Assembly: GCA_964445435.1 (NCBI GenBank)
Contig: CAYUKU010000001.1
Coordinates: 118,942 to 182,941, forward strand
DNA: 64,000 nucleotides
Direction: 5' to 3'
Source: an uncultured Gammaproteobacteria bacterium
GTDB taxonomy: Bacteria > Patescibacteriota > Microgenomatia > UBA10105 > UBA927
Translations under genes and position numbers: made by a program
Shown: positions 12,130 to 57,293 of the stretch, in pieces
Layout of the letters: every line of letters starts with the position of its first letter
How positions within the stretch are numbered: position 1 is the stretch's first letter
Notes under the pieces: model-generated
What the model was told of the DNA's origin: nothing
The model's database searches: none
The model's input: only the letters and a program-made list of their open reading frames with translations

Positions 12130-13254
12130 CTATTCAAGATAGTCTTTCAGCTTCTTACTGCGCGAGGGGTGGCGCAATTTCCGAAGTGCTTTGGCCTCTA
12201 TCTGGCGTATACGCTCGCGGGTAACCCCAAACTGGGCTCCGACTTCTTCGAGCGTCCGCGGCCGGCCGTCCTCCAGGCCAAAACGAAGGATAAGTACCTT
12301 TTTCTCCCGATCGGATAGTGTTGTGAGCACTTCTTCCATGTGTTCTTTCAGAAGTTGACGGCTCGTCTGCTCATATGGTGTGGGGCCGGGGTCGGAAATG
12401 AAGTCTCCCAAGTGACTATCTTCTTCATCCCCAACCGGCGTCTCCAAGCTCGTTGGCTCCTGGGAGACCTTCATGATCTCACGCACTTTCGTCACATCAA
12501 CCTCCATGACCCTGGCTATCTCTTCAGGCGTCGGTTCGCGGCCTAAATCCTGCATGAGACGTCGCGAGGCTCGAACAAACCGGTTAATGGTTTCCACCAT
12601 GTGAACCGGGATACGGATGGTACGCGCCTGATCGGCAATGGCCCGGGTAATAGCCTGACGGATCCACCACGTGGCGTAGGTGCTGAACTTAAATCCCTTG
12701 CGCCAATCGTATTTTTCAACAGCTCTGATAAGTCCCTGATTCCCTTCCTGAATAAGATCCAAAAGGCTCATACCCCGGCCGATATACTTTTTCGCGATGG
12801 AGACCACAAGACGCAGATTGCTTTCGATGAGTTTCTTTTTTGCCTTCCGGTCGCCTTTTTCATAGCGCTTGGCAAGATACATCTCATCGGCGAATGTCAG
12901 AAGAGGAATTCGCCCAATTTCTTTGAGGTACATGCGCACCGGATCAGATACGCCTTCGCTACTAGCTTTGGCGAGCGCTTCAATCTCCCTTTCGAGATCC
13001 TGGATGCTTTTGCTTCCTTCGCGCTCCGTATCCTGGGACGTGGTTTCAAAAACGTCAATACCCGCTCGGATAAGCTTGTCGCACAACCCGTCAAGCTCCT
13101 TGATGTGGTCTTCCGGCTTAGGGAATAAAAAAAGGATATCTTCCTGGGTGACGAAGCCGTTTTCTTTTCCTTCTCTAACTAGGTCAGCAACTGATGCGGG
13201 AGTACGAGTTTTTGCCATAATGGTACCGAAAGTCTTTGCAGGAAATCCTATCAC
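12130..13254 (-). CDS. rpoD: RNA polymerase primary sigma factor (sigma-70 family)
   Basis: Regions 2-4 conserved: [54 protein letters not shown]; C-terminal region 4 HTH; downstream of dnaG in the classic arrangement. Confidence 0.9.
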
Positions 13255-26806: not shown

Positions 26807-27385
26807 CTATTCAAATCCCGGAAAACCAGCAAGCGAAATGAGTGTTACGGCAAGAACCACCATCACAACGCCGCCTGCCACATCAACGACATAATGCTGC
26901 TTCGTAAAAACTGTCGAGAGGGTGATAAGAGAACCGGTGACCCAACTCACCACCGCGTACGCAGGGTGTGCAAGGGCAAGAAAATAGGACGAGAGAAGTG
27001 AAAGAAACACGTGGGAACTCGGGAACGCATTCGTATCCTTATCATGCCGGTAAAACAAAAGAAGCAGCTTGTGAAGCCAGCTCTCTGCGGCAATCTGCGG
27101 ACGGACGGCGCCGTTGGGATAAAAGTACCAGAAAAGCATCGCCAGGCTCTTGGCTATGATAAGCGCGGAAAGAAACGCAGTTTCATACGGCGTATTCCAC
27201 AATGCAAGCACGGCAAGCACCACGAAGGGGAAAAAGGAAATATACGGAAGCACGAAAAGCGGAATAAGCGGAATGTGCGAATCGTACCGGCTTACCCAAT
27301 AGTACCGTGACTGCCTCCGATTCAGAGGAAAATAAAGCGAACTAACGCCCAAAAATACCAAAACAAGGAAGAGATTGAGCCCCAT
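26807..27385 (-). CDS. PAP2-superfamily phosphatase (phosphatidic acid/undecaprenyl-PP phosphatase-like)
   Basis: PAP2 motifs PSSH and TKQHYVVDVAGG; ORF-track N-terminus (to 27559) overlaps two tRNAs, so start taken at MGLNLFLVLVF (27385), which abuts the tRNA-Ser 3' end. Confidence 0.65.
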   Translation of the reverse strand: MGLNLFLVLVFLGVSSLYFPLNRRQSRYYWVSRYDSHIPLIPLFVLPYISFFPFVVLAVLALWNTPYETAFLSALIIAKSLAMLFWYFYPNGAVRPQIAAESWLHKLLLLFYRHDKDTNAFPSSHVFLSLLSSYFLALAHPAYAVVSWVTGSLITLSTVFTKQHYVVDVAGGVVMVVLAVTLISLAGFPGFE

Positions 27386-27475
27386 GGGCGGAAGGGGTGG
27401 GATTCGAACCCACGAAGAGCTTGCGCCCTTACTAGTTTTCAAGACTAGCCTGATCGACCACTCCAGCACCCTTCC
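27386..27475 (-). tRNA. tRNA-Ser (anticodon TGA), type II
   Basis: Hand-folded: acceptor GGAAGGG, anticodon loop CTTGAAA (TGA), long variable arm, T-arm GGTTCGAATCC. Confidence 0.8.
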
Positions 27476-27476
27476 G

Positions 27477-27564
27477 TGGCGGAGAGTGTGGGAGTTGAAC
27501 CCACTCATCGCTATTCGCGATGCAGGTTTAGCAAACCTGTGCCTTACCGTCCGGCCCACTCTCC
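27477..27564 (-). tRNA. tRNA-Ser (anticodon GCT), type II, CCA encoded
   Basis: Hand-folded: acceptor GGAGAGT, anticodon loop TTGCTAA (GCT), long variable arm, T-arm GGTTCAACTCC, 3' GCCA. Confidence 0.85.
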
Positions 27565-28392: not shown

Positions 28393-29064
28393 CTACCGGG
28401 CCATCGTAATGGCCCAAACGCTCCCTGCTCCCACCCGCTTTAAGGCTTTGCACGCGGATCGAATTGTCGCGCCCGTCGTAAACACATCATCAAACAACAG
28501 AACGTTCCTGCCGCGGACGGCTGATTCGTGCGCAGTGAATATATCCTCAACGTTCTGCAGTCGCTGTCTCCTGTTTGCTATTTCGGCCTGTGGTGACGTT
28601 CCCCGTGTGCGTCTGAGTATATCCACGGTTATAGGAATATGCAATTTCTCCGACACAAACCTGCCCAAAACTTCCGCTTGGTTAAACCCACGGTACCGCA
28701 ATCGGGAAGAATGAAGTGCAATAGGAACAAGGCTGTCACTGAGAGGAATTCCATCAAATGCGCTGCTGTCGACAAGAGCGACAAACTCACGCGCGAGATC
28801 TGAAACGAAACGGTATTTGAGCACTTTCACCGCCTCCCGCACTGCGCCATCATAATGAAAGAAGCTCGTAAGACCATCAGGGGCATACCGTGTCCGACAC
28901 CGGGGATGAGTCATGCCCGCGATCGCCGGGTGCTCACACACCGGACAAATGGATTCATTGAGCGTGATGCTGCGAATCTTCTTCCGGCAGTCGCCACAGA
29001 AATACTGACCCACCCGACCGCACCCGAGACACCGCCTGGGGAAAATATAATCAACAAGGCCCAT
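28393..29064 (-). CDS. comF: ComF-family protein (double zinc ribbon + phosphoribosyltransferase domain)
   Basis: N-terminal CxxC...CxxC pairs (CLGCG...CGDC, CPVC...), C-terminal PRTase motif VLLFDDVFTTGAT. Confidence 0.8.
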   Translation of the reverse strand: MGLVDYIFPRRCLGCGRVGQYFCGDCRKKIRSITLNESICPVCEHPAIAGMTHPRCRTRYAPDGLTSFFHYDGAVREAVKVLKYRFVSDLAREFVALVDSSAFDGIPLSDSLVPIALHSSRLRYRGFNQAEVLGRFVSEKLHIPITVDILRRTRGTSPQAEIANRRQRLQNVEDIFTAHESAVRGRNVLLFDDVFTTGATIRSACKALKRVGAGSVWAITMAR

Positions 29065-29076
29065 GCCCCTATTATA

Positions 29077-29485
29077 GGTGGAGATGCCGAGTAATGAGCT
29101 CGGGTCCGAAAGCGTGCATCGTCAACATCTACAAGCGTAGTCCGTTTGGTTTCCCGCATTCAATACGAACGGACAAAAATGACGCGGGAGGTTGATCGGA
29201 TAGAGTCTCTGATATGCGCCGATCAACGCATACCTGACGGTCCGGCTAGGTTTCCACCCCGAATGCCTCACCGAACGAAGAACAAACGGGATGATTCCTT
29301 ATGCTCGCGCGAATGCGTAAGCTCGGGAATACTTGAGGGCCAGCTTCTGCTCAAGAAGAGCGAGCTTTGCTTCAAGTGCTTCTACTGTGTTATCAGCAGA
29401 TAGTGTTTGATACAGTTTTGCGGCTCGTGTATCATCGCCGGCTTGCAGTTGTAAATGTACATCTCTCGTCGAATCAATCATCCCC
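29077..29485 (-). ncRNA. ssrA: tmRNA (ssrA), about 409 nt, immediately downstream of smpB
   Basis: Minus-strand 5' end GGGGATGATTGATTCGACG resembles the conserved tmRNA 5' (GGGGCTGATTCTGGATTCGACGGG). 3' end GGAC-CCGAG-CTCATTA-CTCGG-CATCTCC-ACC gives a T-arm plus 7-nt strand complementary to the 5' GGGGATG. An internal reading frame ends ...LALKYSRAYAFARA-TAA (candidate tag). No covariance search possible here. Confidence 0.65.
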
Positions 29486-29486
29486 T

Positions 29487-29930
29487 TTATTTCACTTTCC
29501 CCCGAAACTCACGATCAAGCTCGCGCTTCTGGTCCTCCCGCCTCTTGGCTTCTCGTTTCTCAAATTGCTTCTTGCCGCGGGCAAGGCCGATCTCAAGCTT
29601 AATATGGGAACCCTTAGTATACCAAGCCAGAGGAACAAGGGTCAAACCGGCGCCCTCTATCCTTCCTTTGAGACTTGTGAGCTCTTTTCTGTGGAGAAGT
29701 AGCTTGCGAGTTCGCCGGGGATCATATCCTTCGGGGCGGGCATAGAGAAACGGGAAAATCTGAGATCCAACCAGGTATGCCTCAGATCCAATAATCCTCA
29801 CAAATGCGCCATCCAGCTGCGCGTGTCCGCCCCGCAGAGACTTCACTTCCGCTCCGGTCAGCTGGATACCCGCTTCTAACTTCTCGAGAATGGTATAGTC
29901 ATGAAACGCTTTCTTGTTTGCGATGTGCAT
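29487..29930 (-). CDS. smpB: SsrA-binding protein
   Basis: Canonical SmpB sequence (HDYTILEKLEAGIQLTGAEVKSLR...LLLHRKEL), 147 aa. Confidence 0.9.
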   Translation of the reverse strand: MHIANKKAFHDYTILEKLEAGIQLTGAEVKSLRGGHAQLDGAFVRIIGSEAYLVGSQIFPFLYARPEGYDPRRTRKLLLHRKELTSLKGRIEGAGLTLVPLAWYTKGSHIKLEIGLARGKKQFEKREAKRREDQKRELDREFRGKVK

Positions 29931-29944
29931 GGCCCCATTGTACG

Positions 29945-31762
29945 CTATTTCATCTCAAGAGCGTACACCTTGCCACCGGAAAGAAGGAGTATTTTTTTCT
30001 CTTTTTCGGAAACCGCAAACTGCTGTACTGCAAATTCACTGGACCAGCGGTACTGGGCCAGATATGTCCCGTCGGGATCCAGAACAACCACACGGCTGAG
30101 TTTCCGATCCAAAAGATAGATATTTTTCGCCTCATCGCTCGTAAACACAAGCAAATCCGCCTCAAGCGGAGGTTCTATCCCCTTGGGCACAAACGTTTCT
30201 TCTTTCCCCTGAACAAACCGGAATACCTTCCCGACTTTTGTTGCCACCCATACCCGGCTGTCAATCGTCATGTTGGTGGCGGCAGAAAAATCAGGGAATG
30301 TGTCAGGATTAAGATATTCACGAATCGGCGAAAAGCCGGATTCCACGGCGACATATTTCCAGATTCTGTTTTTCCCGGTATCCAAAACGTACAGATTGCC
30401 GCCAAACGAAACCAATTCCGTCGCCTCTCCCCACGCATCATCCCGCTTTATGATAAGGGAGGACTTCTTGTCCCCGGTTCGCACCTCAACAATTCCTTCT
30501 GGCGTCAGCGCATATACTTTGTCGCCGTGCATATCAACATCCCGTACTCCGGCCATCATTTCCCCGCCCCCAACAATCACTGCGTTTTTCGTAGGAAGAT
30601 CAAGCGTATAAAGCGTCTGTCCTGCCTGATCGGCAACAGCAAGCGTGTCTCCCACAAGAGCAAAAGAACTGGCCACGGCACCCTGTTTCACAAGACTCAT
30701 ATCAAAAAACAGCACCGGTGGTGCTTCTACAATCTGCATTGCCTGGGTCAGATTGTCGTTAATCTGCTGATACAGCGTTATCACATCTCTGCCCTGGCGG
30801 GTCCGGTCATTTATGGTTTCGATAAACGGCGCAAGTGCGTCTCTGGCTGCACCCAGTCGCTCTCTTCCTTTCACGGGATTCAGCTCAAGGAGTGCCACTC
30901 CTTCTTCAAACGCATGACGGGCTTCGGTAAGAGCGTTTTGGACTTCCGTGTTCGTCTGCGTATTCATTTGCCTCACAATGCCCAACCCGACACTCACTAA
31001 AAATACGAGAGTCGAGATAACAGCCGCAACCTTAGGGATACGCTCAGGACGCTCCCTTATGTGTACCATGTCACCTACAAACGTCTGAATGTGGTGCTTC
31101 ACTTTGGAAACTACCCTCCGAAGGGGTATGGGCGACCGTGCAGCGGCCTGCCGCGGCGTTTCAGCGGGAGCGACCTCAGGCTCAGACGGAGGCGGAGAGT
31201 CAATTTCTTCAAATTGTTCAACGGTATACACAAGGGCGACACTGCCCTCACCTCCCTGCCGTTCGTGAAGAAGCATGGTGAGTTTTTCTGCCACCTCCTG
31301 TGCGGTGAGATGGTCAAAAAGTTTCACGATTTCTGAAGCCGGCAGCGCCCGGGCAAATCCTTTCGACGCAAGAAGAAGCGTGTCTCCTTTGCGTATCTCA
31401 CCTGAGAGTCCACCATCCTGATGGATAAGCTTGGCTAGCTCATCTCCCCGTTTGATATACACGAGACCTTCGCCACGAAGGACGAGGTAAACGATGCGTC
31501 CAACAGGAACCAGAAGAATAAGACTCACGATCGCAGGATCACTGATGCCGTCGGCAATCCGTTCGATCGCCCGAAGCCCTGCAGGCTCCCCTGCCAACCC
31601 CTCACCAAGTTGTGACAGAACCCGCACGCCTTTCTGCTGGGCGCCGCCGTATTCATCGAAAATTTCAACAATCCCGTATCCGCCGGGCTGCACAAGGACC
31701 TGCCCCCACCTTTTCCCGTCTGCCGGGCCGACGGCAAGTCCGATCTGTGATTTCACACGCAT
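29945..31762 (-). CDS. Hypothetical membrane protein: N-terminal cytoplasmic domain, one TM, C-terminal beta-propeller-like extracytoplasmic domain
   Basis: 605 aa; TM helix VAAVISTLVFLVSVGLGIV; C-terminal repeats (VYALTPEGIVEV, LYVLDTGKNRIWKY, IYLLDRKLSRVVVLDPDG) suggest a beta-propeller; the 398-aa plus-strand ORF 29804..31000 is its shadow. Confidence 0.55.
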   Translation of the reverse strand: MRVKSQIGLAVGPADGKRWGQVLVQPGGYGIVEIFDEYGGAQQKGVRVLSQLGEGLAGEPAGLRAIERIADGISDPAIVSLILLVPVGRIVYLVLRGEGLVYIKRGDELAKLIHQDGGLSGEIRKGDTLLLASKGFARALPASEIVKLFDHLTAQEVAEKLTMLLHERQGGEGSVALVYTVEQFEEIDSPPPSEPEVAPAETPRQAAARSPIPLRRVVSKVKHHIQTFVGDMVHIRERPERIPKVAAVISTLVFLVSVGLGIVRQMNTQTNTEVQNALTEARHAFEEGVALLELNPVKGRERLGAARDALAPFIETINDRTRQGRDVITLYQQINDNLTQAMQIVEAPPVLFFDMSLVKQGAVASSFALVGDTLAVADQAGQTLYTLDLPTKNAVIVGGGEMMAGVRDVDMHGDKVYALTPEGIVEVRTGDKKSSLIIKRDDAWGEATELVSFGGNLYVLDTGKNRIWKYVAVESGFSPIREYLNPDTFPDFSAATNMTIDSRVWVATKVGKVFRFVQGKEETFVPKGIEPPLEADLLVFTSDEAKNIYLLDRKLSRVVVLDPDGTYLAQYRWSSEFAVQQFAVSEKEKKILLLSGGKVYALEMK

Positions 31763-36047: not shown

Positions 36048-37028
36048 TTAAAATAGATGCTCTGATATCTTCTTCGCCCCAGCAGACGGCCTGTTTGCGA
36101 TGATGGATTCGATTCCGTCCAGTTTTCGTAATTTTTCCATAACCAGTGACTCATGTTTCCCTTCGCACAGCACGTGCACGTTGGGTCCCGCGTCAATGGT
36201 AAAGTATACCGGTACGCCTTCTTTTCTCCAAAGGCGTACCGCATCCATAAGGATGCGCGTCGTATCATTCCAGTACAGAAGCGGCGGGACTTGTGTCTGC
36301 ATGACGGCATGCATATCAAAACAGTCTTCCTCTACTACCTGCCCAAACTCGGAAAAATTCTTTTCTCCCAATGCACGCACCAGACGCTCCATTCTTCCGG
36401 GTATCGAAGAGAGCCGCGACGTAAGTTTCGGGCTCGTGGCGACATTCTTCATGCCGTCGGTTGTTGAAATTTTCTTCATTCCCGAATCGACAATCACAAG
36501 AAGGTCACGGATATCCCAATACTCGCTTGGATGCAAAGACCGTGCATACGAGGTATCCGAAGAATACCCCTTTTCCCATATAACAAATCCGTCGGGAATA
36601 CTTCTGCATGCTGATCCCGAGCCCAGCCTAGCAAATATCGTCAGCTCTTTTTCCGATGCCGATATCCCCGCTGCGGCAAACGCGGCAACGGTGAGAGCGG
36701 CAAACCCCGACGCGGATGCCGCGGCCCCCGCACCTTTGGGAAACGTGTTTTTCGTGACCACGCGTGCAGGCATGTCTAAACCACCTTTTTCCCGAATCAG
36801 ATTAAGACTCCCGATGACGCGATCCTTTTCACTCGGGGAAAATATTCCACCCAGAAGTTCAACCGAATCGTTGTTGTATCCCCGGGAAAACTCCACAGTC
36901 GTTGTCGTATACGCGCCACTCAAATTCATGGAAAGCGAATCATTAAGAGGAATGCGAAGCGTCTCATCAGCCTTTCCCCAGTATTTGATAAACGCGATAT
37001 TTGCCGGTGCTTGTGCAGTTGCTTTCAT
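36048..37028 (-). CDS. mvaD: Diphosphomevalonate decarboxylase (or phosphomevalonate decarboxylase)
   Basis: N-terminal signature APANIAFIKYWGK; GHMP-fold length 326 aa. Confidence 0.85.
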   Translation of the reverse strand: MKATAQAPANIAFIKYWGKADETLRIPLNDSLSMNLSGAYTTTTVEFSRGYNNDSVELLGGIFSPSEKDRVIGSLNLIREKGGLDMPARVVTKNTFPKGAGAAASASGFAALTVAAFAAAGISASEKELTIFARLGSGSACRSIPDGFVIWEKGYSSDTSYARSLHPSEYWDIRDLLVIVDSGMKKISTTDGMKNVATSPKLTSRLSSIPGRMERLVRALGEKNFSEFGQVVEEDCFDMHAVMQTQVPPLLYWNDTTRILMDAVRLWRKEGVPVYFTIDAGPNVHVLCEGKHESLVMEKLRKLDGIESIIANRPSAGAKKISEHLF

Positions 37029-37939
37029 GCATCCCTCCGTACTCCTTCTGCGTTCAACGAAAACCTAAGCACTTCTCCGCCGGCGGCAACGATGGCCTTC
37101 TCAACTGCTTGCCTTCTGTCCTGAGGGGTAATTGCGATCATGCAGTCTGAGCCTCCGGCGCCCGATAGTTTGGCTCCCCATGCGCCCGCGTTTTTGGCGG
37201 CAAGGATAAGCGCTTCAAGCTTCTCGGAGCTTACCCCCAAATCCCGAAGATATTCCTGATTGAAGTCAAAAAGTTTTCCCACGCGCTCCCAGTCTCCCTC
37301 GCCCATGTGCATGCGGGCTTCTTCGACCAATTTTCCAATCGCGTCAAAGATTCTCTCAACCTTTTGCGGCTCGGAATCGCGTTTTTTTCCCACGTCACGG
37401 ACAATGGTCATGGTGTCCGCTTTCACACCGGTGTAGCCGATAATGATAGGGGGAGGCGGTACTGCCATAGGTTCAACGACCTCCCCTTCATTCTTATAGT
37501 ACAGTGCGCCACCCCACGTTGCCGCCGCGACATCAAACCCTGATCCGCCCCTTTGCACTTCTTTCGTGGTTTTATACGAAAGCTCAAATATCTCCCCGGG
37601 TGTACCTTTCTTCCCCAAGAATTCCCGAAGCGCAAACACCATCGCGACGGTTACTGCCGCCGATGACCCAAAGCCGAAGCTGGAGCTAAATTCGCTTTTC
37701 GTATGTACCGTGATGCCCGAAACCTCCTCTTTCCAGCGTGCCCTCACTGTTTCGATTGCCCGGGAAACAAACTTGGTATCGGAAACCTGCGGAGCATCAA
37801 TAACAACGCCGCTATCCCTTCTTTTTTCTACCGACACCGACAATCTCGCGTTTACGGCCGTTACGATACACGGGCGCCCATACACCACTGCGTGTTCGCC
37901 CATAAGAAGAAGTTTGCCCGGCGCTGAGACGGTTATCAT
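37025..37939 (-). CDS. GHMP kinase, mevalonate kinase/phosphomevalonate kinase paralog
   Basis: MITVSAPGKLLLMGEHAVVYG N-terminal motif and GFGSSAAVTVA ATP-binding motif; which of the two GHMP paralogs is MVK vs PMK cannot be resolved by eye. Confidence 0.75.
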   Translation of the reverse strand: MITVSAPGKLLLMGEHAVVYGRPCIVTAVNARLSVSVEKRRDSGVVIDAPQVSDTKFVSRAIETVRARWKEEVSGITVHTKSEFSSSFGFGSSAAVTVAMVFALREFLGKKGTPGEIFELSYKTTKEVQRGGSGFDVAAATWGGALYYKNEGEVVEPMAVPPPPIIIGYTGVKADTMTIVRDVGKKRDSEPQKVERIFDAIGKLVEEARMHMGEGDWERVGKLFDFNQEYLRDLGVSSEKLEALILAAKNAGAWGAKLSGAGGSDCMIAITPQDRRQAVEKAIVAAGGEVLRFSLNAEGVRRDA

Positions 37940-38838
37940 GATTTGCTCTCCAATCGTATACCTTCCTCGCCAAGCGTAATTGGTACTGCCCCCTTTGGCG
38001 GATGCTCGGAATAACAAAGGAGGAACCCAACGCCGTCTGTTTTCCCGCCTCCTCCAAGTATTTTGGCGGCTCCCCCCTCACCCTCCACCTGTCGAATGAT
38101 TGACATAGCCTTTTTGCTCACCACTCCCATGCCCTCCAAACTCCGCTGCCCGTTTCGTATCGCTGATAAAAGCATTTTTCTGTCACCTGTTTTAAGCGCA
38201 ATCGCTACTCTTTTCGTCTCACGTTCATTATCATCGAAAAGTCTTGTCATCTTTGAGGGCTGACTGCCGAAACGGTCTTTCACATACGCGACCATGTCGC
38301 CTGTCGTCTCCTGGGGTCTGCCTGTATCTATCAGAAAAAACCCGGACAACGTTGTTTTGATAGGCATCTGCCAAATACTTCGCAAAAACTCAAGCTCCTT
38401 TCGGAACCAAATAAATCCTCCCATCGTGACTGCCGTGTTGTCTCCTCCTGAGGGGTTCCCGTGCTTGTACTTTTCAATCTCATACGCGAGCTGATTTATT
38501 GCCATGGGATTCCACGTTTTTTTAACGTAATAGGTAAACGCTCCCGCAACCCCTACCGCAACCGCTGCGGATGATCCGAGGTGGTATCCTGCCGGAATCT
38601 GTGAATCGATAACGATGCGGATGTCGGGAACCTCAGAGAGTTTATACGTTTTGGCTAAAAACGAAACCGCCTGCTCAACATAGGATTGAGGCTCAGCGCA
38701 AACTATCTCAAATCGGTCGTGTTGTTCGATGGAAACAGACAGACGAAGATCAATCGCAGCGAGAAGCGCAGGCTTCCCGTACACAACGGCGTGTTCTCCC
38801 ATCAGATGAACCTTCCCCGGAACTGAAACGGTAATCAT
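37936..38838 (-). CDS. GHMP kinase, probable mevalonate kinase
   Basis: MITVSVPGKVHLMGEHAVVYG and HLGSSAAVAVGVAGA motifs; 4-bp ATGA overlap with downstream paralog. Confidence 0.75.
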   Translation of the reverse strand: MITVSVPGKVHLMGEHAVVYGKPALLAAIDLRLSVSIEQHDRFEIVCAEPQSYVEQAVSFLAKTYKLSEVPDIRIVIDSQIPAGYHLGSSAAVAVGVAGAFTYYVKKTWNPMAINQLAYEIEKYKHGNPSGGDNTAVTMGGFIWFRKELEFLRSIWQMPIKTTLSGFFLIDTGRPQETTGDMVAYVKDRFGSQPSKMTRLFDDNERETKRVAIALKTGDRKMLLSAIRNGQRSLEGMGVVSKKAMSIIRQVEGEGGAAKILGGGGKTDGVGFLLCYSEHPPKGAVPITLGEEGIRLESKS

Positions 38839-39134
38839 AGAGGTTTTACTTTTATACCGTACGGAATGACCGCATCTATTGCGGATTGGATCGTCCGGCG
38901 CACAACCGTCACTACCCGTTGTCCCACGACTAAGTGAGAAGGGGCATAATCCACAAGTTGTGCGGTAATGCGCTCCCCGCCTTCTAGCTCAACGAGCACA
39001 ACGGGATACGGCGCCTGGTACCCGAAATCCGCGGGTGGAACGCGAATAACCGTAAAGGAACGGATAACGCCCGTTTTCCCGATCATGCGGGCGACGTATT
39101 TCTGATTTCTCCACACTTTGACCGGACTTAACAT
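38835..39134 (-). CDS. DUF35-type OB-fold protein (partner of archaeal-type HMG-CoA synthase/thiolase complex)
   Basis: 99 aa, position between thiolase and GHMP kinase exactly as in archaeal/CPR mevalonate operons; OB-fold-sized. Confidence 0.6.
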   Translation of the reverse strand: MLSPVKVWRNQKYVARMIGKTGVIRSFTVIRVPPADFGYQAPYPVVLVELEGGERITAQLVDYAPSHLVVGQRVVTVVRRTIQSAIDAVIPYGIKVKPL

Positions 39135-39135
39135 A

Positions 39136-40287
39136 TTATCGTTTCAAAATATGAACAACTGCGGTTGCGCCACTGCCGCCGACATTATGTGCAAGGCCTA
39201 TTGATGCCCCTTCTCTCTGCCGGGTTTTGTTTTTCCCTCTCAACTGGTCGACCAGCTCGACAACCTGCTTGACGCCCGTTGCACCGACTGGATGTCCGCA
39301 TCCTTTGAGCCCTCCTGAGGGATTGACGACCAACCGCTTGGCTTTCCCGAGCGTCGTTTCGCCCTGTGCGATTTTACCTGCTGCGTCACCCTTGGGAAAA
39401 AATCCAAGATCTTCCATGGCGAGAATTTCGGCGATAGTAAAACAGTCATGAACCTCCGCGATATCGATATCGCGGGGCGCAACTGCCGCTTTTTCGTATG
39501 CTTCGGCTCCGGCCCTTCGGGTGGCTTCAAGCGCCGTTAAATTTTTCCTTTGGGCGACTCCCAACGTATCGGTTGCGACACAGGAGGCGGCGATTTCGAT
39601 CGAATGCACCCTCTTGATGTTTCGGCGCTTGTTCGTCAGTACGACCGCTGCGGCGCCATCCGATATCGGCGAGCAGTCAAGAAGCTTGAGAGGATCGGCC
39701 ACCTTACTGCTTTTCATGACCTTCTCAACCGTCAGAAGCGAGTGGAATTGCGCGTTAGGATTAAGACTCGCGTGATAATGATTCTTAACAGCAACGGCAG
39801 CCATTTCTTCTTCGGTCGTATGGTACTGCTCCATATGTGCCCGGGCCAAAATCGCATACAATCCCGGAAACGTCGCTCCAGAAAGACGCTCACCCTCGCT
39901 TCCGGCTCCCATGAGCGCCGTGGCGACATCGTCCGGCTTGTGATCCGTCATTTTCTCCACTCCTAACACAACGACGGTGTCATACTGACCGGACAAAACG
40001 GCATTCACCCCGTTATGAAGCGCGAGTCCGCCTGAGGCGCATGCACCCTCGATCTTAAACGCCGGAATCGACCAGCCCAACTCTTCTGCAAAAAACGCCC
40101 CCAGGTGTTCCTGCCCTCCGAGCATGCCGGAAAGCATATTGCCCACAAACAATGCCTCAACGCGCCGGGCTTCAATGTCCGCATCCGCCAAAGCTCCCTC
40201 AACCGCCTGCTTGGCAAGCGTTCGCGGAGAAACTCCCCACAGTTCTCCAAATTTAGTAGTCGCAGCGCCGGTAATAAAGACGTTCAT
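39136..40287 (-). CDS. Acetyl-CoA C-acetyltransferase (thiolase, archaeal-type)
   Basis: Thiolase active-site context FKIEGACASGGLALHNG and C-terminal GHPVGATG motifs. Confidence 0.85.
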   Translation of the reverse strand: MNVFITGAATTKFGELWGVSPRTLAKQAVEGALADADIEARRVEALFVGNMLSGMLGGQEHLGAFFAEELGWSIPAFKIEGACASGGLALHNGVNAVLSGQYDTVVVLGVEKMTDHKPDDVATALMGAGSEGERLSGATFPGLYAILARAHMEQYHTTEEEMAAVAVKNHYHASLNPNAQFHSLLTVEKVMKSSKVADPLKLLDCSPISDGAAAVVLTNKRRNIKRVHSIEIAASCVATDTLGVAQRKNLTALEATRRAGAEAYEKAAVAPRDIDIAEVHDCFTIAEILAMEDLGFFPKGDAAGKIAQGETTLGKAKRLVVNPSGGLKGCGHPVGATGVKQVVELVDQLRGKNKTRQREGASIGLAHNVGGSGATAVVHILKR

Positions 40288-41327
40288 ATTTTATGGGTCT
40301 GTTTCAGATACCCCACGTAATCGATATGTGTTTTATTGGCAATCAAGTCAGAGACAGTAGTTTTCATGCGTTTGCGCACCTTTTGGATTGTTGTAATATT
40401 CTTGGTCACCCGCCAGAGAAATGCGTCGGAACCTGCTCCCGACCCGTATGAAGCCATAAAAATCGTGTCGCCCGGCCTGGCCATGTCAAGTGTCGCCGCA
40501 AAGCCGAGCAATGCAGAGGCAGAGTATGGATTTCCGATATGGTCGACGGTAAGGGAAGGCGCTATCTGATGGGGCACAAATCCCAAGCGCCTGGCTGCAT
40601 CTCTGGGGAATCGGGCATTCGGCATATGGAAAACGCCGTATGTTATATCTTTCGGGTCCATATCAAGCCCCCCGAGAAGTTTCTTGGATGCTCCCAATAC
40701 ATGGGTGAAATACGCAGGCTCTCCGGTAAATCGTCCGGCATGCGTGGGGTAACGGATTCCATCCCGTCGCCAGAAATCCGGCGTGTCGGAAGAAAATGAG
40801 GTATACGAAACAAGCTCGGCAATCGGATTGGTGTTTCCCAAAAGAAGCGCCACTCCTGCAGCCGCCGACGTGTATTCAAGAGCATCGTGCGGCTTGCTTT
40901 GCGCCGTATCTGATCCGATCGCAAGGCCATAGGCAATGTGTCCGGAATCGACGAGCCCTGCTATCGCCTGCACGGCGGCGGTTGCGGCCTTGCAGGCAAA
41001 TTCCAAATCCGCGGCAAGATACCCATTGCCCACCCCTAACAATTCTCCTACAATCGTTGACGTGGGATTCACCGCATACGGATGACTTTCGCTCCCCACA
41101 AACAGCGTTTCAATCTTCTGAGGATCAATCGCACCCGACACTAACGCATCATGCGCCGATTCCAGTGCGATAGTGACGGCATCCTCGTCAACACCAGGCA
41201 CGGATTTCTCAGAAATCCCCAAAGACGCGACGACTTCGTCGCCCTCTTTCTTCCACGCCCTGGCAATATCACCCAAAGTGACACGGTATATAGGAACATA
41301 TGTCCCGTAACTTACTATGCCTGCCAT
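40284..41327 (-). CDS. Hydroxymethylglutaryl-CoA synthase (archaeal-type, short)
   Basis: 347 aa; IVSYGTYVPIYRV ... LEFACKAATAA catalytic Cys context typical of archaeal HMGCS. Confidence 0.85.
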   Translation of the reverse strand: MAGIVSYGTYVPIYRVTLGDIARAWKKEGDEVVASLGISEKSVPGVDEDAVTIALESAHDALVSGAIDPQKIETLFVGSESHPYAVNPTSTIVGELLGVGNGYLAADLEFACKAATAAVQAIAGLVDSGHIAYGLAIGSDTAQSKPHDALEYTSAAAGVALLLGNTNPIAELVSYTSFSSDTPDFWRRDGIRYPTHAGRFTGEPAYFTHVLGASKKLLGGLDMDPKDITYGVFHMPNARFPRDAARRLGFVPHQIAPSLTVDHIGNPYSASALLGFAATLDMARPGDTIFMASYGSGAGSDAFLWRVTKNITTIQKVRKRMKTTVSDLIANKTHIDYVGYLKQTHKI

Positions 41328-42482
41328 TTATTTCCCTCCCCGTGCAAGCGTTTTGTGCGCTTTCACCAACGATCCTTCTTCAAGAGATGAAAGAAGCGAC
41401 ACTTCCCCGGCAAGGACACTGGCTGCCACTATTTCTGCAAACTGCCGACTATGCTCTCCGTCGTTACCCCCTGCTACACCCAATATCGTAAGGGCTTCCG
41501 TTTGTGTGGCAAGACCAGTCCCTCCACCCACCGTGCCTACCATCAGATCGGGCATACAAACATTGATATACAGGGCATCACCGTCTACCTCACAGGTGGT
41601 TATCCCGCAGCTCGCCTCGCTTATGTGGCCCGGGTCTTGCCCGGTTGCCAGAAACAGCGCGGCAACCACGTTAGCGTACTGGGCATTAAATCCCATGCTG
41701 CCGCTTATGGCGCTTCCGATCATGCACTTGGCGAGCCAGACGTCATAGACTTTTTTTGCAGATGTTTTCAAAACGCTTGAAAGTATCGGTGCGGGAATGA
41801 CTGCCTCTGCCCACACTTTGGTTCCCCGGTTTTCAAGTATATTGAGCCACGCCGGTTTCTTATCGATGTCGAAATTTCCTGCGACCGCCACGCACGAAAC
41901 ACCCGTTTTTTCTTCGATATACGAAGCGATAGCCTGGGAAGCAATCGTCACCATATTCATACCCATCGCGTCCCCGGTGTGGAATACAAACCGGACATAG
42001 CGATAGCGCCCGACACCGCGGGTGAAAAGCTTCTCAAGCGTCAGGTGCCGCGATATGTTCCCTGCGACTTCCCGTAGCTCGTCCAGGTGCTCCTTAAGAA
42101 ACCGGTATAACCGGTCACTTTCTTCCAGATTTTTCACACGGAATACCGGACCGCGCGTCGCACCCACCCGGTGGCTGTCCACCGAGGCGCCGCCGGATAG
42201 GGTGATTGCTTTGCACCCCCGGTTGACTGACGCCACGAGCGCGCCTTCAGTCGTCGCAAGAGGAATGTAATACTGCCTCCCGTCCCCCTTTGGGGATTGG
42301 ACCTTTAAAGGTCCGGCAATTCCCAAAGGAATCTGCGCTATCCCGATCATATTTTCACAATTGCGGGCTGCCGCCACTTGCTCGTCCAGGGTGAACGAGC
42401 CTATATGGGGCATCGTGACACCGAGCTCTTTCTCAAGGGCCTTCCGTCGGTCTGCCACTTTTGTATATGTACGAAGGTTCAT
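41328..42482 (-). CDS. HMG-CoA reductase, class I catalytic domain only
   Basis: ENMIGIAQIPLGIAGPL, ATTEGALVASVNRGCKA motifs; ORF-track N-terminal extension to 42833 overlaps the upstream gene in another frame, so start taken at MNLRTY (42482). Confidence 0.8.
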   Translation of the reverse strand: MNLRTYTKVADRRKALEKELGVTMPHIGSFTLDEQVAAARNCENMIGIAQIPLGIAGPLKVQSPKGDGRQYYIPLATTEGALVASVNRGCKAITLSGGASVDSHRVGATRGPVFRVKNLEESDRLYRFLKEHLDELREVAGNISRHLTLEKLFTRGVGRYRYVRFVFHTGDAMGMNMVTIASQAIASYIEEKTGVSCVAVAGNFDIDKKPAWLNILENRGTKVWAEAVIPAPILSSVLKTSAKKVYDVWLAKCMIGSAISGSMGFNAQYANVVAALFLATGQDPGHISEASCGITTCEVDGDALYINVCMPDLMVGTVGGGTGLATQTEALTILGVAGGNDGEHSRQFAEIVAASVLAGEVSLLSSLEEGSLVKAHKTLARGGK

Positions 42483-43096
42483 AGAAACGGAATGCGAAAA
42501 ATTCCCAGCCGATACATCAAAACGCTGTATGCGCCAAGAAGCGGAAGCACGACCACACACACGATCGTAATTTTCCCCAAATCCAGCTTCAGACCAAACC
42601 GCAATGCCAAGTACCCCAAAATGACTTTCCAAAACAAAAGCGTCGATGAAAAGAGGAGATACAGAGCGCTGAAAAGGACGCCATAAACGCTGGTCGTTCT
42701 GGGGGGAGGAAGAAGAACGTACAAAAGCGAGGTTGACAAAAACCACAGAAGCGTGGGGATAAGCGTATATCCCCATCCGAGAAGAAGCCCCCTGAGAGTC
42801 CCTTTCGCGCCAACCAGCCTCCCCGCGGTCCAAAAAAGAAACACCGTCAAAAGATACGTAACAAGCACGGCGACGGCTAATACCACAAAGTGACGGGTGA
42901 GCAAAAACGGCCGAAACGATGCTGTTTTCACGAGCGCAGCGCTTGCGAAATAGGTCGACAACAGGAGGGCTATCCCCACCAGTTCCCAGAGATTCCCCTC
43001 GCGCTCAATCCGCCGGTATGTTTCATACGGGCGGGAAAGAATCCCGACAATCGTTCGGCCAAACGATACCGCAATAGTAATTGCCTTCTCATCCAT
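42479..43096 (-). CDS. Polytopic membrane protein (Yip1-domain-like), hypothetical
   Basis: 205 aa, 5 TM helices; 4-bp overlap with HMGR start suggests co-transcription. Confidence 0.5.
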   Translation of the reverse strand: MDEKAITIAVSFGRTIVGILSRPYETYRRIEREGNLWELVGIALLLSTYFASAALVKTASFRPFLLTRHFVVLAVAVLVTYLLTVFLFWTAGRLVGAKGTLRGLLLGWGYTLIPTLLWFLSTSLLYVLLPPPRTTSVYGVLFSALYLLFSSTLLFWKVILGYLALRFGLKLDLGKITIVCVVVLPLLGAYSVLMYRLGIFRIPFL

Positions 43097-47806: not shown

Positions 47807-50800
47807 TCACGAATGACCGCCACCGCCACCCGCGCCTGAAGCATCCTGCACGCCCTTCTTTGCACTTCCAAATGCACCCATAGCAAGAAGCGCGCCTCCG
47901 ATAAGCACGAACGCATACGCATTATATAAGCGCACGGTCTTGAATCCTGCAATCTGAATCCCGAACTTCCGGTGCATTTTGTGGGTAAAGTCAGGCATGT
48001 GAGTATGAAACTTCGTCTCCAATGCCGCCTCTACCTCGTGCTCGAGATGGTCCAAATCCACCCGACCCATGGCCGGTGCTCCTTGCCCTACCGCGCGCTG
48101 AGCCGCAGAAAGATCCATCGTCGTTCGATCATCACTAATACCTGATAAGTCGGCCCACAAATCTTTCACAACGGCCTGACGCCAACCATAGAACAACGTC
48201 TGCCCGACCGGTGCCTTGGCGCCCTCATAGCCACCGCTGAAGAGAATCGTGTCCACAAACGGCTTGAAATGCTGCATGAATGTCTTGCCATCCTTGGCGC
48301 CCAGTATGCCGATAAGGTCCTTCGCCATGGCATTCACTGAGTTTTGCGTATCTCCGGCCCAGCGCGGTAATCCGCCACCCGCACCGTGACCGCCCCGCAC
48401 TGAACTGATACGACCGGACCATTTGAGTTCCTTGCGTTGATGATCGGGATTATTGTCCTTAATGCCGTCCAGAAATTTGATACGCGGGTCGATCGTGTTC
48501 ACGGTCGTGAAATGAGCGGCGTACGCGGGATTTGCAAGATCTTCGATAATATGGGGATTGAGAGCAAAATCCGATGCGGCCTTCATCACATCCAGGTACG
48601 CTTTTACGTTTTCTTCTGGCGTAAGACTGCTGTCGCCCGTGGCGACACAAACTTTTTTAAGTGCGGCCTGTTCATGCGGCGAATAGACGCTCATATCTCC
48701 ATTCCACTTGGAGTAGTCAATCGGCCCTTGCGGCGTTTCTATCAGTTTTCCCCCGCTCCATTCGCGGGTAAGCGCAAGCTCAGTGTCTACCATCGCCCGT
48801 CGCATTTCGGCAGCCTTGATGGCTCCCCGCACAAACTGTTCCGGATTATTCGCGTTATAGACAAGATTCTCGCCCATTGCCGCATCGTGGAACCGGCTGA
48901 ACAGTGCGGAATTTGTGGAAAACCATTCAAACGTCTTCTCATGCATCTTTTGAGCAAGCGCATCGATGCTTGCGATGGGATCAAACTTCCCCATTAAGAC
49001 GAATGTCTTGGTTTTGAGTGTCACCTCTGCATCATGAAACTTCTTATGATCTCCCGCAGTATCAAACAGGCCGCCTGCGTCCAGACGAGCCGTCTCGTGG
49101 AGCAGAACTCCATTCGTCATGCCGGTATCTGCGTCAACGACTTTATAGAGACCAAAGTCCTTGAGAGCATCGATCTGCGACCCTATTTGCCAACCGGAAT
49201 CTATGTAATGATACGCTCCTGAGAACCGGGCGTCCAAGAGCCGTCGCCCTTCCCGATAGATAATCTGCTCCTCCAAATCAGCCTTCGTCAGCTCTGAAAG
49301 CGTCTGGGGAGTTTGTCGTTGCAATCCCTCCCGAGTTCCGCCAAAGAGCTGACGCAGAAAACTGTCCTCTCTTCGTATGCGCAATGAGCCAAACGCTCGT
49401 GCGACTGTCGCCTGATCATCCAGATCGTTGATGTTGAAAGCCATTTTCACCAGACGGTTCCATTCCGCCTGCGCCGCCCGCCCCTCGGGTGTAGGCAAAT
49501 TCCGTATTTTGTCAAGCTGACCTAACCGCGCGCGCCAATACGTATCGAGACCCACCCGTGATGCTTCCACGGCAAACATCTTTCGCATGACGAGGGCACC
49601 GAAATCGCTCTTAATCGCCCACCGATCTACCAGCCATTTAAACGGGTTCATCGAGAAAATGATTTTTCCCTCTGCCGGTTGGCCAGCAAACTCAAGCGGA
49701 TTTCCACTCTGGTGCATCATCTCAATCGGGGTAGCGGCTTTGCCGAAGATCTGTGCGCGCTGACCAGTGGCTTCGATAAGCATCGAAACTTCTCTCACGG
49801 CCATCTCTATGTCCGTCTTCTCAATTCTACGCCGTATGATGCGTCCGTTTTCATCTTTTCTCACGTCTCCATTTGTGTCGTATTCAACGCTTCCTTCCCA
49901 CTCCTGAAACCGGTCATTATACATCCCCTTTTGAGTTTGAGCGTGTGCCCACATTTGATCGACTATTGCGTCTTCCATCACTTCAATTCTCCCTGCTGTT
50001 AACGCACGGATGTATCCGTTCTCATCCCAAATTTCTGCCGCAAAGCGCTGTTTAAACACGCCAAACACCTCAAGATTGAGTCCGTTACGCTCATTTAACG
50101 TGCGCGGATACCCCTCGTCGCCGAAAATCGCGTAAACGCTCTTAAGCTTGTCCATCTCCGTATCAAGCTCAAGGCCTCCTTTTAAACGCAATAGCGCGCC
50201 GCGGATAGAAATAGTTCTGGAGATCTCTTTATTCCATTCAAGATACCCCTCGTTCATTTCCCTGTACCACTTATGATTAGTGTTGAGGACGCGGTTGCCA
50301 TCGCTGTCCAAAACCGGACTTCCATCAGGACGGACTTGGTAGATCGACTCTCCGCTTATTTGCGTAATCTCATCCCAGTTTCTCGGATCCCTCAAGTAAG
50401 CGAGGCGATTTTTGCGGTAATCATCGCTTGCGGCGTATTGAATAAGCTGAGAGTAATTGCGGTCAGCGGCCTCTTCCCACTTTCCTTCAAAAACGTTCAC
50501 AGTGGCGTTTATGAAATCCTGCTTGCTTCTGGCAAACACATCCACCCCGCGCCATGACCGCTTCATTTCTTCCAGAGAAAGGTATAAGCTGCTCCATCCC
50601 CGCTCAAGCTCACGCTCGGTGTACCGTTCCCTTCCAACACTAAGCGCCGTCTCCCGGAATGTTTCATACTTTTGGGCCAACTCCGGCTGGTCCGCCATGA
50701 GCCGTCTCCATGTATAGCTATCAGTATTGTGGTCCTGCATGGCAGTCATAAAATCAAAAATCTCATTTCGTACCCGCGGATCGTTCATGTTCCCGTGAGC

Positions 50801-52078
50801 ATCATGAAGGATTTTGTTGAAATGCTCCAGGCGGGATTTGAGATTTCGTGCCGCTACCCGCTCGGCAGGAATTGCCCTTGGACCTGCCACTTTATCCAGA
50901 TACTTTAACGCACCCGCGCTAAATTCATCGCCTCCGGGCGCTCTGCGCCTCGCACCACGCGCTCTTCCGCGCCCCCGACTCGTCCCAGCGGTGCCGATTG
51001 CCTCAAGCGCATCCTCAGCCCGATCGCCAAACTCGGGACTCACCTCATCGTGGTACATCTGGGCGACCTTCTCGGCGAAGCGTTTACGGAACGTATCACG
51101 CTCGCGCACCTGCTCATCAGTTGATCCCTGCCCGAGCGCCTTAATCTGAGAGCCCTTGGCAAGCAAAAACTCCTTGGTCCACGCATCTTCGCCGGCCTGT
51201 GCAATGTCATACACAACCTGCGCAATATCGGGATCTTTTATCAGCTCGCCATCAGAAACCAACCAGGATAATTCATTCGTCGTTCGTATTGTTTCTTGTA
51301 TCTTCCGATTCGCTTCGGCAGGTTCAACCGTACGCGTAATTTCCGGTCCCAACTTAAAGTCATCTAGAATCTGCGTCTCCAGATCCTCCGCCCACGCTTG
51401 GGTGTTCTCGGGATGCGCGCTGTGTGCGTGGTAATACACTGCCTGCTCGTCTTTCGTAATGCGCTCCACGCTTGCGCCCTTAAACGCCGGGTCATTTTTC
51501 ACGACTTCATCAAACCTCTTTCCTGAAGAGCCCTTAATCGCATCCCAATTGCGATATCCCCATTCGTACGCCGCCTGCCGCACTTCTCGCAAAACCATCT
51601 GATCCGACTCGCTTAGAGTCGTCATCTGCGGCATGTCTTTGAGGATGGTGCGCACCTTCGTCCATTCCTCTGCGCTGGGCGTGCTCCAGTTAATTTCCGG
51701 CGGCTGTTTATTCGGCGAAAGGCGGCTGATGCCGCCCAAAAGCCGCTGGTTATCTATAGGAACCGACGCGCGGAACTGATCTGACACGAGTACCGTCATC
51801 TTCTGCTCCGCAGAAAGCGGAGATCCCGCCTCTTGTCCGGCACGGATCATGGCTTTGCGGACAACTTCCGTATCCTGAACTTTGGGCTGGGTTTCTCCTT
51901 TGGTTTGAGGCGAGACATCAGGAGCTTTTTTTGGTTCTACTTTCTTCCCTCGTTCTTTCGCCTTTGCCTGGGTATTTGCGGTTGCAGCTTCCGCCTGCAC
52001 GACCATCGGAAGCGGTTTGTTTTTCCCCGCGTTTTCAAAAAGCGATTTCAGTGCATCGAAGAGTTCTTTTGACGCCAT
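47807..52078 (-). CDS. Giant (1423 aa) tail-anchored hypothetical protein, no recognisable domains
   Basis: Single uninterrupted 4.27 kb ORF; Arg/Gly-rich patch SRGRGRARGARRRAPGG; single C-terminal TM helix LYNAYAFVLIGGALLAMGAF followed by a Gly-run; downstream of T4CP-like gene and nadD on the same strand. Confidence 0.6.
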   Translation of the reverse strand: MASKELFDALKSLFENAGKNKPLPMVVQAEAATANTQAKAKERGKKVEPKKAPDVSPQTKGETQPKVQDTEVVRKAMIRAGQEAGSPLSAEQKMTVLVSDQFRASVPIDNQRLLGGISRLSPNKQPPEINWSTPSAEEWTKVRTILKDMPQMTTLSESDQMVLREVRQAAYEWGYRNWDAIKGSSGKRFDEVVKNDPAFKGASVERITKDEQAVYYHAHSAHPENTQAWAEDLETQILDDFKLGPEITRTVEPAEANRKIQETIRTTNELSWLVSDGELIKDPDIAQVVYDIAQAGEDAWTKEFLLAKGSQIKALGQGSTDEQVRERDTFRKRFAEKVAQMYHDEVSPEFGDRAEDALEAIGTAGTSRGRGRARGARRRAPGGDEFSAGALKYLDKVAGPRAIPAERVAARNLKSRLEHFNKILHDAHGNMNDPRVRNEIFDFMTAMQDHNTDSYTWRRLMADQPELAQKYETFRETALSVGRERYTERELERGWSSLYLSLEEMKRSWRGVDVFARSKQDFINATVNVFEGKWEEAADRNYSQLIQYAASDDYRKNRLAYLRDPRNWDEITQISGESIYQVRPDGSPVLDSDGNRVLNTNHKWYREMNEGYLEWNKEISRTISIRGALLRLKGGLELDTEMDKLKSVYAIFGDEGYPRTLNERNGLNLEVFGVFKQRFAAEIWDENGYIRALTAGRIEVMEDAIVDQMWAHAQTQKGMYNDRFQEWEGSVEYDTNGDVRKDENGRIIRRRIEKTDIEMAVREVSMLIEATGQRAQIFGKAATPIEMMHQSGNPLEFAGQPAEGKIIFSMNPFKWLVDRWAIKSDFGALVMRKMFAVEASRVGLDTYWRARLGQLDKIRNLPTPEGRAAQAEWNRLVKMAFNINDLDDQATVARAFGSLRIRREDSFLRQLFGGTREGLQRQTPQTLSELTKADLEEQIIYREGRRLLDARFSGAYHYIDSGWQIGSQIDALKDFGLYKVVDADTGMTNGVLLHETARLDAGGLFDTAGDHKKFHDAEVTLKTKTFVLMGKFDPIASIDALAQKMHEKTFEWFSTNSALFSRFHDAAMGENLVYNANNPEQFVRGAIKAAEMRRAMVDTELALTREWSGGKLIETPQGPIDYSKWNGDMSVYSPHEQAALKKVCVATGDSSLTPEENVKAYLDVMKAASDFALNPHIIEDLANPAYAAHFTTVNTIDPRIKFLDGIKDNNPDHQRKELKWSGRISSVRGGHGAGGGLPRWAGDTQNSVNAMAKDLIGILGAKDGKTFMQHFKPFVDTILFSGGYEGAKAPVGQTLFYGWRQAVVKDLWADLSGISDDRTTMDLSAAQRAVGQGAPAMGRVDLDHLEHEVEAALETKFHTHMPDFTHKMHRKFGIQIAGFKTVRLYNAYAFVLIGGALLAMGAFGSAKKGVQDASGAGGGGGHS

Positions 52079-55135: not shown

Positions 55136-55218
55136 ATTCTGATGCGCTTTGTGCTATTGCGCTCGCGTCAAAATTACCCCAAAATAGTACTACCAGCCGA
55201 TAGTGCGGAGTTCTGTCT

Positions 55219-56631: not shown

Positions 56632-56632
56632 T

Positions 56633-57292: not shown

Positions 57293-57293
57293 T

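Follow-up and report, generated by a model that had tools for sequence, protein, structure and literature searches.

Here we describe the gene of a transfer-messenger RNA (tmRNA), ssrA, which adjoins smpB in a 64-kb stretch of DNA (the window in what follows) whose source was assigned to Candidatus Gottesmanbacteria (Microgenomates/candidate phyla radiation, CPR) through its SmpB homologues. The segment from 29077 to 29485 on the minus strand would be a functional one-piece tmRNA of this genome with lineage-specific features, and we give this reading a probability of about 0.9. The segment matches the Rfam tmRNA model RF00023 over its full length (29076-29485, minus strand; 93.6 bits where the gathering score is 47, E-value 3.7e-35, model positions 1-374 of 374), and this is the only tmRNA match that Rfam gives within the window. 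A preliminary description, made from the letters of the sequence, had proposed a tmRNA at this place and a covariance-model search for it, and the search bears the proposal out. The features that set this tmRNA apart are its T-loop and D-loop, its long tag with the unusual ending, the single base that separates it from smpB, and a likely promoter within the smpB gene.

All features of this locus lie on the minus strand and are given in window coordinates. The strand was read over window positions 28900-30100; at the junction of the two genes it runs ...GTG AAA TAA A GGGGATGATTGATTCGACG, and some 400 nt further on it reads ...GGACCCGAGCTCATTACTCGGCATCTCCACCT. The smpB gene (29487-29930; Pfam SmpB, 162.5 bits) encodes a full-length protein of 147 aa in which the C-terminal tail is present, and its stop codon TAA occupies 29487-29489. 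A single A at 29486 is the whole spacer between this stop and G1 of the tmRNA at 29485. The tmRNA gene, counted as far as the encoded CC, measures 409 nt (29077-29485; RF00023), and the terminal A of CCA is absent from the DNA, the encoded ACC being followed by T at 29076. The adjacency of tmRNA and smpB that had been noticed earlier was therefore confirmed; the span then given for the tmRNA, 29077-29489, does contain the gene but takes in the smpB stop, and the tmRNA proper ends at 29485. The two ends of the RNA pair as had been claimed: the 5′ strand of the acceptor stem, GGGGAUG (29479-29485), faces CAUCUCC (29080-29086), which is followed by the discriminator A at 29079 and by CC at 29077-29078. 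In this stem G3 is the wobble partner in a G3.U70 pair, the identity pair of alanine.

The comparison rests on loci that were collected by means of SmpB. Homologues of the window SmpB are numerous at 72-100% identity, and those that carry names belong to Candidatus Gottesmanbacteria. Two collection scans with SmpB gave, among the matches listed, only L001 and L002 as close loci, together with about 158 loci from unrelated phyla; the SmpBs of the latter are mostly about 50% identical, and these loci served as the outgroup sample. The remaining clade loci, numbered within L161-L177, were retrieved by exact-protein look-ups, and after several duplicates were dropped the clade set holds 13 distinct smpB-ssrA loci including that of the window. 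The outgroup tmRNAs number 18, and the same set was obtained from ARAGORN and from a scan blind to the sequence of the T-loop. In all 13 clade loci a tmRNA lies directly downstream of smpB (found by nhmmer with the window tmRNA or by a structural scan), and all the relatives pass RF00023 at full length with 85-130 bits. The order DUF5657, a protein of about 600 aa, smpB, ssrA, a comF-like gene and thiamine pyrophosphokinase is kept in the relatives. For context, in the window a ComF-type phosphoribosyltransferase gene (28393-29064; Pfam DZR_2 and Pribosyltran) starts 12 nt past the tmRNA's 3′ end, and smpB starts 14 nt past the gene upstream of it. The labels of two loci call for a remark. L002 is labelled as an uncultured Gammaproteobacteria and has an smpB-ssrA locus typical of Gottesmanbacteria (SmpB identity 75%, T-loop of the same type), and L007 is labelled Acidobacteriaceae and has a tag resembling that of the Uhrbacteria locus L016, with the T-loop UGCAAUU and a single-G D-loop. 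Both are probably mislabelled or mis-binned contigs of metagenome-assembled genomes.

An alignment of ten clade tmRNAs, made by MAFFT, was folded with RNAalifold. Compensatory changes were found in 37 of the 65 predicted pairs, and they span helix 2, stem 1 of pseudoknot 1 (PK1), three downstream hairpins and three of the five T-stem pairs. PK1 (29408-29440) consists of stem 1, CGGC/GCCG (RNAalifold columns 49-52/65-68), and of stem 2, UGAUA/UAUCA, which was taken from the alignment. The folding of the pseudoknot region had been suggested in advance, and the stems of PK1 are backed by compensatory changes, stem 2 showing C-G for U-A in L166, L002 and L168 and reading UGACA/UGUCA in the last two. 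A comparable exchange is seen in the acceptor stem, where U6-A is replaced by C6-G in L172, L174 and L175 and GGGGAUG/CAUCUCC becomes GGGGACG/CGUCUCC. Three strongly covarying hairpins are predicted 3′ of the tag, and they stand for the PK2-PK4 modules, of which the hairpin stems only are predicted. By this comparative evidence the structure of the tmRNA is under selection.

The most distinctive part of the molecule is the elbow of its tRNA-like domain. The T-arm, CCGAG-CUCAUUA-CUCGG (29087-29103), has a stem of 5 bp closed by G53-C61 and a loop of 7 nt (29092-29098), in which C54, U58 and A60 were identified according to the described anatomy of T-loops (PMC7912444). The loop CUCAUUA departs from the canonical UUCRANY, as U54 and A58 are absent and a purine stands at position 60. 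The D-loop analogue AUUGAUUC (29471-29478), which was compared with the Rfam consensus and with the 18 outgroup tmRNAs, has a single G instead of the usual GG and then a conserved GAC; in its 5′ sequence AUUGAUUCGAC, one G takes the place of the GG that is present in the Rfam consensus and in 16 of the 18 outgroups. The T-loop had already been called atypical in the preliminary description, and the comparison over 13 loci extends this to the clade, as in 13 of 13 the T-loop is non-canonical and the D-loop analogue has a single G. CUCAUUA is the loop of nine of them and the others have UUCAUUA, UUCAUUG, CUCAACG or CUCACUA, so that the consensus is YUCAYUR against UUCRANY, with position 54 usually C, position 58 usually a pyrimidine and position 60 a purine. 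The outgroup tmRNAs have A58 in all 18, UUC in 17 and GG in 16. The six tRNAs of the window retain T-loops of the UUCGAAU type and GG.

Since both the T-loop and the D-loop have changed, the U54-A58 platform and the intercalation of G18 were probably lost together in this lineage, whereas C56-G may still pair. The variants at positions 54 and 60 are C.A, U-A, U.G and C-G (window, L002, L174, L168, L175), which suggests a base pair, an A+.C wobble included, and with it a T-stem of 6 bp and a pentaloop; with three or four changes this is a lead only. Contacts between the T-loop and the D-loop of tmRNA have been reported as required for the binding of SmpB (PMC3968760).

The changed T-loop has a practical effect on annotation. 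At default settings ARAGORN reports six tRNAs in the window and misses the tmRNA, and it fails likewise on all ten clade loci tested. An in-silico swap of the T-loop to UUCGAUU is alone sufficient to restore default detection in the window, and the T-loop is therefore the reason why the program misses the tmRNAs of these ten loci. Detection was not restored by C54U, by U58A, by both, by both with A60U or by repair of the D-loop GG, and the full UUCGAUU is needed. The canonical T-loop UUCRANY and the D-loop GG are a near-universal trait of the tmRNA family and not its functional definition.

The reading frame of the tag could be fixed. The resume codon is GCU (Ala) at tmRNA positions 89-91 (29395-29397), which is preceded by U(-5)A(-4) and was placed by the Rfam alignment and ARAGORN; the same sources give the tag frame ADNTVEALEAKLALLEQKLALKYSRAYAFARA of 32 codons (29302-29397), and the stop UAA follows at 29299-29301. 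The sequence at the resume point is UAUCU-GCU, and UA-N2-U-GCU is conserved in all relatives; the five nucleotides upstream of the resume codon are known to set the frame (PMC3968760). Relaxed runs of ARAGORN agree on the resume coordinates for the clade loci and on the tag for most of them, and the default run on the window with repaired T-loop yields ADNTVEALEAKLALLEQKLALKYSRAYAFARA as well. The resume point, which had been called unclear, is therefore resolved as GCU at 29397-29395, and the frame ending in AYAFARA-UAA stands as it was first read. Between the window, L162 and L164 the tag codons show 5/3, 3/2 and 2/2 synonymous/non-synonymous differences per pair.

Two explanations would deny the segment its role as a working tmRNA. 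The first takes it for a gene at an early stage of pseudogenisation, of the kind met in some reduced endosymbionts, with the odd T-loop, the lost GG and the odd tag ending as signs of decay. CPR genomes are indeed reduced, erosion of ssrA and smpB together with an smpB-ssrA overlap is on record in Carsonella (PMC4131195), and a default run of ARAGORN does miss the gene. We nevertheless hold decay to be very improbable. All 13 of 13 relatives, which have diverged to SmpB identities of 72-100%, carry these deviations as fixed traits, the tag frame is intact, the resume context is conserved, and SmpB has its full length, C-terminal tail included; a decaying gene would be expected to show scattered uncompensated changes, and decay is disfavoured because the changes found throughout the structure are compensatory. 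The other explanation is that the region holds a small protein gene, the open reading frame (ORF) of 60 aa at 29299-29481, and its probability is close to nil. This ORF is open in the window, and a gene of 60 residues is called there in a public assembly of this sequence (L161, 3450-3632). The tag frame makes up the last 32 codons of the ORF; the 28 codons before them run across the acceptor stem, P2 and PK1, elements that covary as RNA in a region that yields a full-length tmRNA covariance match. The ORF has no Pfam match and is open in the window genome only, being broken at codon 10, with a stop after nine codons, in L162 and L164, the closest relatives, as well as in most of the others. 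It was rejected as a protein gene on account of the broken frame, and from the start it had been taken as probably the tag frame. Antisense ORFs of 143-150 aa are called across the 3′ end of smpB and the tmRNA in L163 (3259-3690, minus strand) and L166 (2325-2777, minus strand), and these calls and the 60-aa call are almost certainly spurious.

The ends of the tags were compared over the 13 clade loci, in which the tags are 19-36 aa long. The ending ..AYAFARA is found in the window and L164, and ..AYAFARV in L162; the other endings are ..TFAFAEV (L001), ..LAFAYQA (L002), ..PALALAA (L171), ..PAFAYAA (L166), ..LPAFAA (L176), ..PALALTA (L177, 36 aa), ..AYAQAYVN (L168), ..AYLFATA (L174), ..YAVLTA (L172) and ..FAFAYNNVLNA (L175). 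The last two residues vary across the clade (AA, TA, RA, RV, EV, QA, NA, VN) and a core of aromatic/Leu-Ala repeats, [YF]A[FLY]A, is conserved. The non-canonical ending that had been noted is thus confirmed, 16 of the 18 outgroup tags ending in AA; ARA is real and unusual, and it is restricted to a single small subclade. The central LEQKLALKYS segment of the window tag recurs in L176, yet the tag of L176 has the canonical end FAA. This central segment, EALEAKLALLEQKLALK in the window, is rich in A, L, E and K and probably helical. An amphipathic helix in it was also considered and was rejected, the hydrophobic moment against shuffles being not significant for any tag (fractions 0.09-0.96).

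The spacing of the two genes was followed over the same loci. From the smpB stop to G1 the 13 clade loci have spacers of -1, 1, 1, 1, 1, 2, 5, 12, 40, 46, 61, 147 and 184 nt, and the 16 outgroups in which ssrA follows smpB on one strand have 22-1940 nt. The 1-nt gap is typical of about half of the clade and unusual elsewhere, and in L168 G1 is itself the last base of the smpB stop TAG, an overlap of 1 nt. A promoter or terminator between smpB and ssrA can be dismissed, for neither fits into 1 nt, and matches resembling terminators in the smpB-ssrA region are weak and no commoner than in shuffles. A consensus scan gave a putative ssrA promoter inside smpB, over codons 96-105 (29616-29645), with 10 of 12 matches and TG. 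It consists of a -35 element TTGACC (29640-29645), a spacer of N18, TG at the extended -10 position (29623-29624) and a -10 element TATACT (29616-29621), and it lies about 130 nt upstream of G1. A primary sigma-70 gene is also in the window, at 12133-13254.

The codons of this element were examined in an alignment of ten clade smpB genes, in which 70 columns have an invariant amino acid and degenerate codons. Tyr104, whose codon TAT belongs to the -10 element, is the only one of the 70 columns with a single codon. Leu96 is TTG in nine of ten genes and TTA in one, the other invariant Leu columns using 3-5 codons, and Thr105 is ACT in nine of ten. The exception, AAT (Asn), converts TATACT to TATAAT; two replacements of Thr by Asn in the clade each yield a perfect TATAAT, and three further relatives retain TTGACN together with TGGTATACT or TGGTATAAT. 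The element is most likely a conserved sigma-70-like promoter that would give ssrA its own strong transcription. Given such an embedded promoter the intergenic spacer would become dispensable, and ssrA could adjoin smpB. Another perfect TATAAT was observed right after the encoded ACC (window 29064-29076), followed by AGGGGC and the ATG of comF; it is the same in L162 and different in others, and a transcript that began about 7 nt downstream of it would be leaderless.

Several points weigh against this picture as a whole. The function of the tmRNA is argued from its conservation, and the scope of 64 kb may be compatible with a second tmRNA elsewhere in the genome. The promoter is argued from a consensus match and from the freezing of codons that also encode a conserved Leu-Thr...Trp-Tyr-Thr motif, and as the 13 genomes are related the identity of these codons may be partly inherited. 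The promoter motif is moreover kept with spacers of 147-184 nt, and hence it is not specific to zero spacing.

Other proposals accept the tmRNA and differ in what is made of its tag, its spacing and its elbow. In the preliminary description the ARA ending was read as a possible sign of degradation outside ClpXP or of an altered adaptor, and both stay proposals here. The ending may mark a switch of the tag to a protease other than ClpXP, Lon or FtsH as in Mollicutes, with an internal YAFA-type core and the long body being recognised; we regard such a switch as possible, though we do not favour it. The long tags of 19-36 aa speak for it, as does the likeness of the core [YF]A[FLY]A to the ...NYAFA end of the Lon-directed tag of Mesoplasma florum (PMC9097571, PMC10659297), and for the tag of Mycoplasma pneumoniae the dependence on Lon has been shown in vivo (PMC8403727). 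An E. coli-type ClpX site that reads LAA-COOH should not tolerate variable last two residues (PMC3968760), and the variable ends suggest a relaxed or non-ClpX recognition of the C-terminus. A switch of the whole clade is however not evident, since close relatives keep canonical ends (LALAA, AFAYAA, PAFAA), and of the 13 tags 10 still finish with Ala and 2 with Val. The specificity of ClpX outside model organisms is, to our knowledge, not well known. No Clp, SspB, Lon or FtsH gene lies within the 64-kb window, which is part of a genome of roughly 1 Mb, and in the literature nothing relevant was found on tmRNA or on Clp/Lon in CPR/Patescibacteria, the ClpX and ClpP of papers on TM7x being genes of the host.

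The zero spacing has been considered as a feedback device, in which a cut of RNase P at G1 leaves an smpB mRNA that ends 1 nt past the stop, so that the synthesis of SmpB becomes itself a target of trans-translation; this we hold to be improbable. Spacers of 5 nt or less occur in 7 of 13 clade genomes, the cut in L168 would fall within the stop codon, smpB transcripts read into ssrA because a terminator has no room, and non-stop smpB mRNAs have been proposed for Carsonella, where smpB intrudes into ssrA (PMC4131195). The arrangement is however not conserved, six relatives having spacers of 12-184 nt, and with the intact stop codon of the window release factors should remain able to work. Simple compaction of the genome accounts for the spacing just as well, as the neighbouring gaps of 12 and 14 nt indicate. 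A broader proposal would see in the locus a different tRNA-like elbow, with the U54-A58 reverse-Hoogsteen platform and the G18 intercalation replaced (possibly by a 54-60 pair and a pentaloop), joined with the promoter inside smpB and with G1 at the stop into a coupling of SmpB and tmRNA output. This combination appears unlikely to us, if somewhat less so than the feedback device. If it were true, SmpB, RNase P, the CCA-adding enzyme and the CPR ribosome would accept an elbow that is not a T-loop elbow, and the promoter inside smpB with G1 beside the stop could feed smpB mRNA into trans-translation.

Returning to the tmRNA as an ordinary working molecule, its course could be as follows. RNase P would trim a leader of about 120 nt from the promoter transcript and so make the 5′ end of the tmRNA, and the 3′ end would be formed by trimming and addition of CCA, as expected from the missing spacers and the incomplete encoded CCA. 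As there is no room for a terminator and only 12 nt to comF, the tmRNA must also be excised from read-through operon transcripts, and CCA addition is required because the CCA is incomplete in the DNA. Alanyl-tRNA synthetase would charge the tmRNA by way of G3.U70 and A73, and the charged tmRNA would bind SmpB and enter stalled ribosomes. Translation would then switch to the GCU resume codon, add the 32-residue ADNTVEALEAKLALLEQKLALKYSRAYAFARA and end at UAA.

The locus was also compared with systems already described. With the standard one-piece tmRNA (RF00023; E. coli, Thermus thermophilus) it shares G3.U70 and the discriminator A, the T-stem of 5 bp with a loop of 7 nt, the UCGAC/GGAC junction, a long helix 2, PK1 followed by U(-5)A(-4), the Ala resume codon, the in-frame stop, three downstream modules (predicted hairpins in our locus) and the adjoining smpB. 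It differs by the CUCAUUA T-loop, the single-G D-loop, a tag of 32 aa against about 10, the ending ARA against LAA, the partly encoded CCA, the 1-nt gap to smpB and the likely promoter inside smpB. The tags of Mollicutes (Mesoplasma florum, Mycoplasma pneumoniae; Lon-directed, 27 aa, ...YAFA) belong likewise to reduced genomes and are long with a YAFA core, but here YAFA is followed by RA, and the likeness was assessed on the core only. The smpB-ssrA locus of Carsonella ruddii (Hudson, Lau and Williams 2014, PMC4131195) has in common with ours the missing spacer, unusual tag endings and a maturation of tmRNA that is expected to truncate the smpB mRNA. In Carsonella the coding sequence of smpB runs into ssrA and SmpB is without tail and central loop, whereas in the window SmpB is complete, its stop is intact, and the coding sequence ends before the mature tmRNA with a complete stop and one base, so that an overlap of the Carsonella type is not present. 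Two loci of other CPR-like genomes in the sample, L016 (Candidatus Uhrbacteria) and L007, share long tags of 21-22 aa with endings other than AA (..PVLA, ..MAVA); they differ in that ARAGORN finds both at default settings and in that both lie on the strand opposite to smpB, and L016 has the canonical UUCGAUU and GG.

Some further observations concern the surroundings of ssrA in the relatives and other parts of the window. A large serine recombinase gene (Resolvase and Zn_ribbon_recom) lies on the opposite strand directly 3′ of the tmRNA in L164 (3851-5413, minus strand) and L172 (2778-4325, minus strand). The flank past the tmRNA 3′ end is identical in these two, ACTAGATATTTTTTCGC, despite their different sublineages, and the flank of L001 was also looked at; the shared flank of L164 and L172 suggests that a mobile island has integrated at ssrA. 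Resolvase is listed as the top coding sequence overlapping the 3′ ends of tRNA and tmRNA genes (Hudson et al. 2014, PMC4131195). A LOOT RNA (RF03000, 81.1 bits) is found at 6014-6129 (plus strand) of L164, in the putative island downstream of the recombinase, and no recombinase island is present at the ssrA of the window. The six tRNA genes of the window form a cluster at 22.1-27.6 kb, in which two tRNA-Ser genes (tga, gct) stand back to back at 27385-27564 (minus strand) with 0 nt between them according to ARAGORN and 4 nt according to Rfam, a further case of extreme packing. A mevalonate-pathway cluster at 36048-42833 (minus strand) encodes HMG-CoA reductase, thiolase, an ACP_syn_III-like (HMG-CoA synthase-like) protein, a GHMP kinase and diphosphomevalonate decarboxylase, and it adjoins undecaprenyl diphosphate synthase. 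A cluster resembling conjugation or type IV secretion systems at 52706-61535 holds a TraG/TrwB-like coupling protein, a PrgI-family protein, a VirB4/TraG P-loop ATPase and an M23 peptidase, and next to it a protein of 1423 aa without Pfam match is encoded (47807-52078).

By its function the tmRNA of this lineage would be an ordinary one, by its form a modest variant specific to the lineage, and the understanding of trans-translation remains unchanged by it. Annotation based on ARAGORN will report no tmRNA for the lineage, which Rfam/Infernal detects readily, and gene callers replace it by a spurious ORF of 60 aa or by antisense ORFs. That the last two residues of the tag vary freely suggests a recognition of the degron unlike that of E. 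coli ClpX, and the putative promoter kept inside a coding sequence by selection on synonymous sites would illustrate how genes are packed in a reduced genome. The loss of U54, A58 and GG in the tmRNA throughout the clade, with the tRNAs unaffected, amounts to a natural experiment on which contacts of the elbow are needed by SmpB, RNase P and the ribosome.

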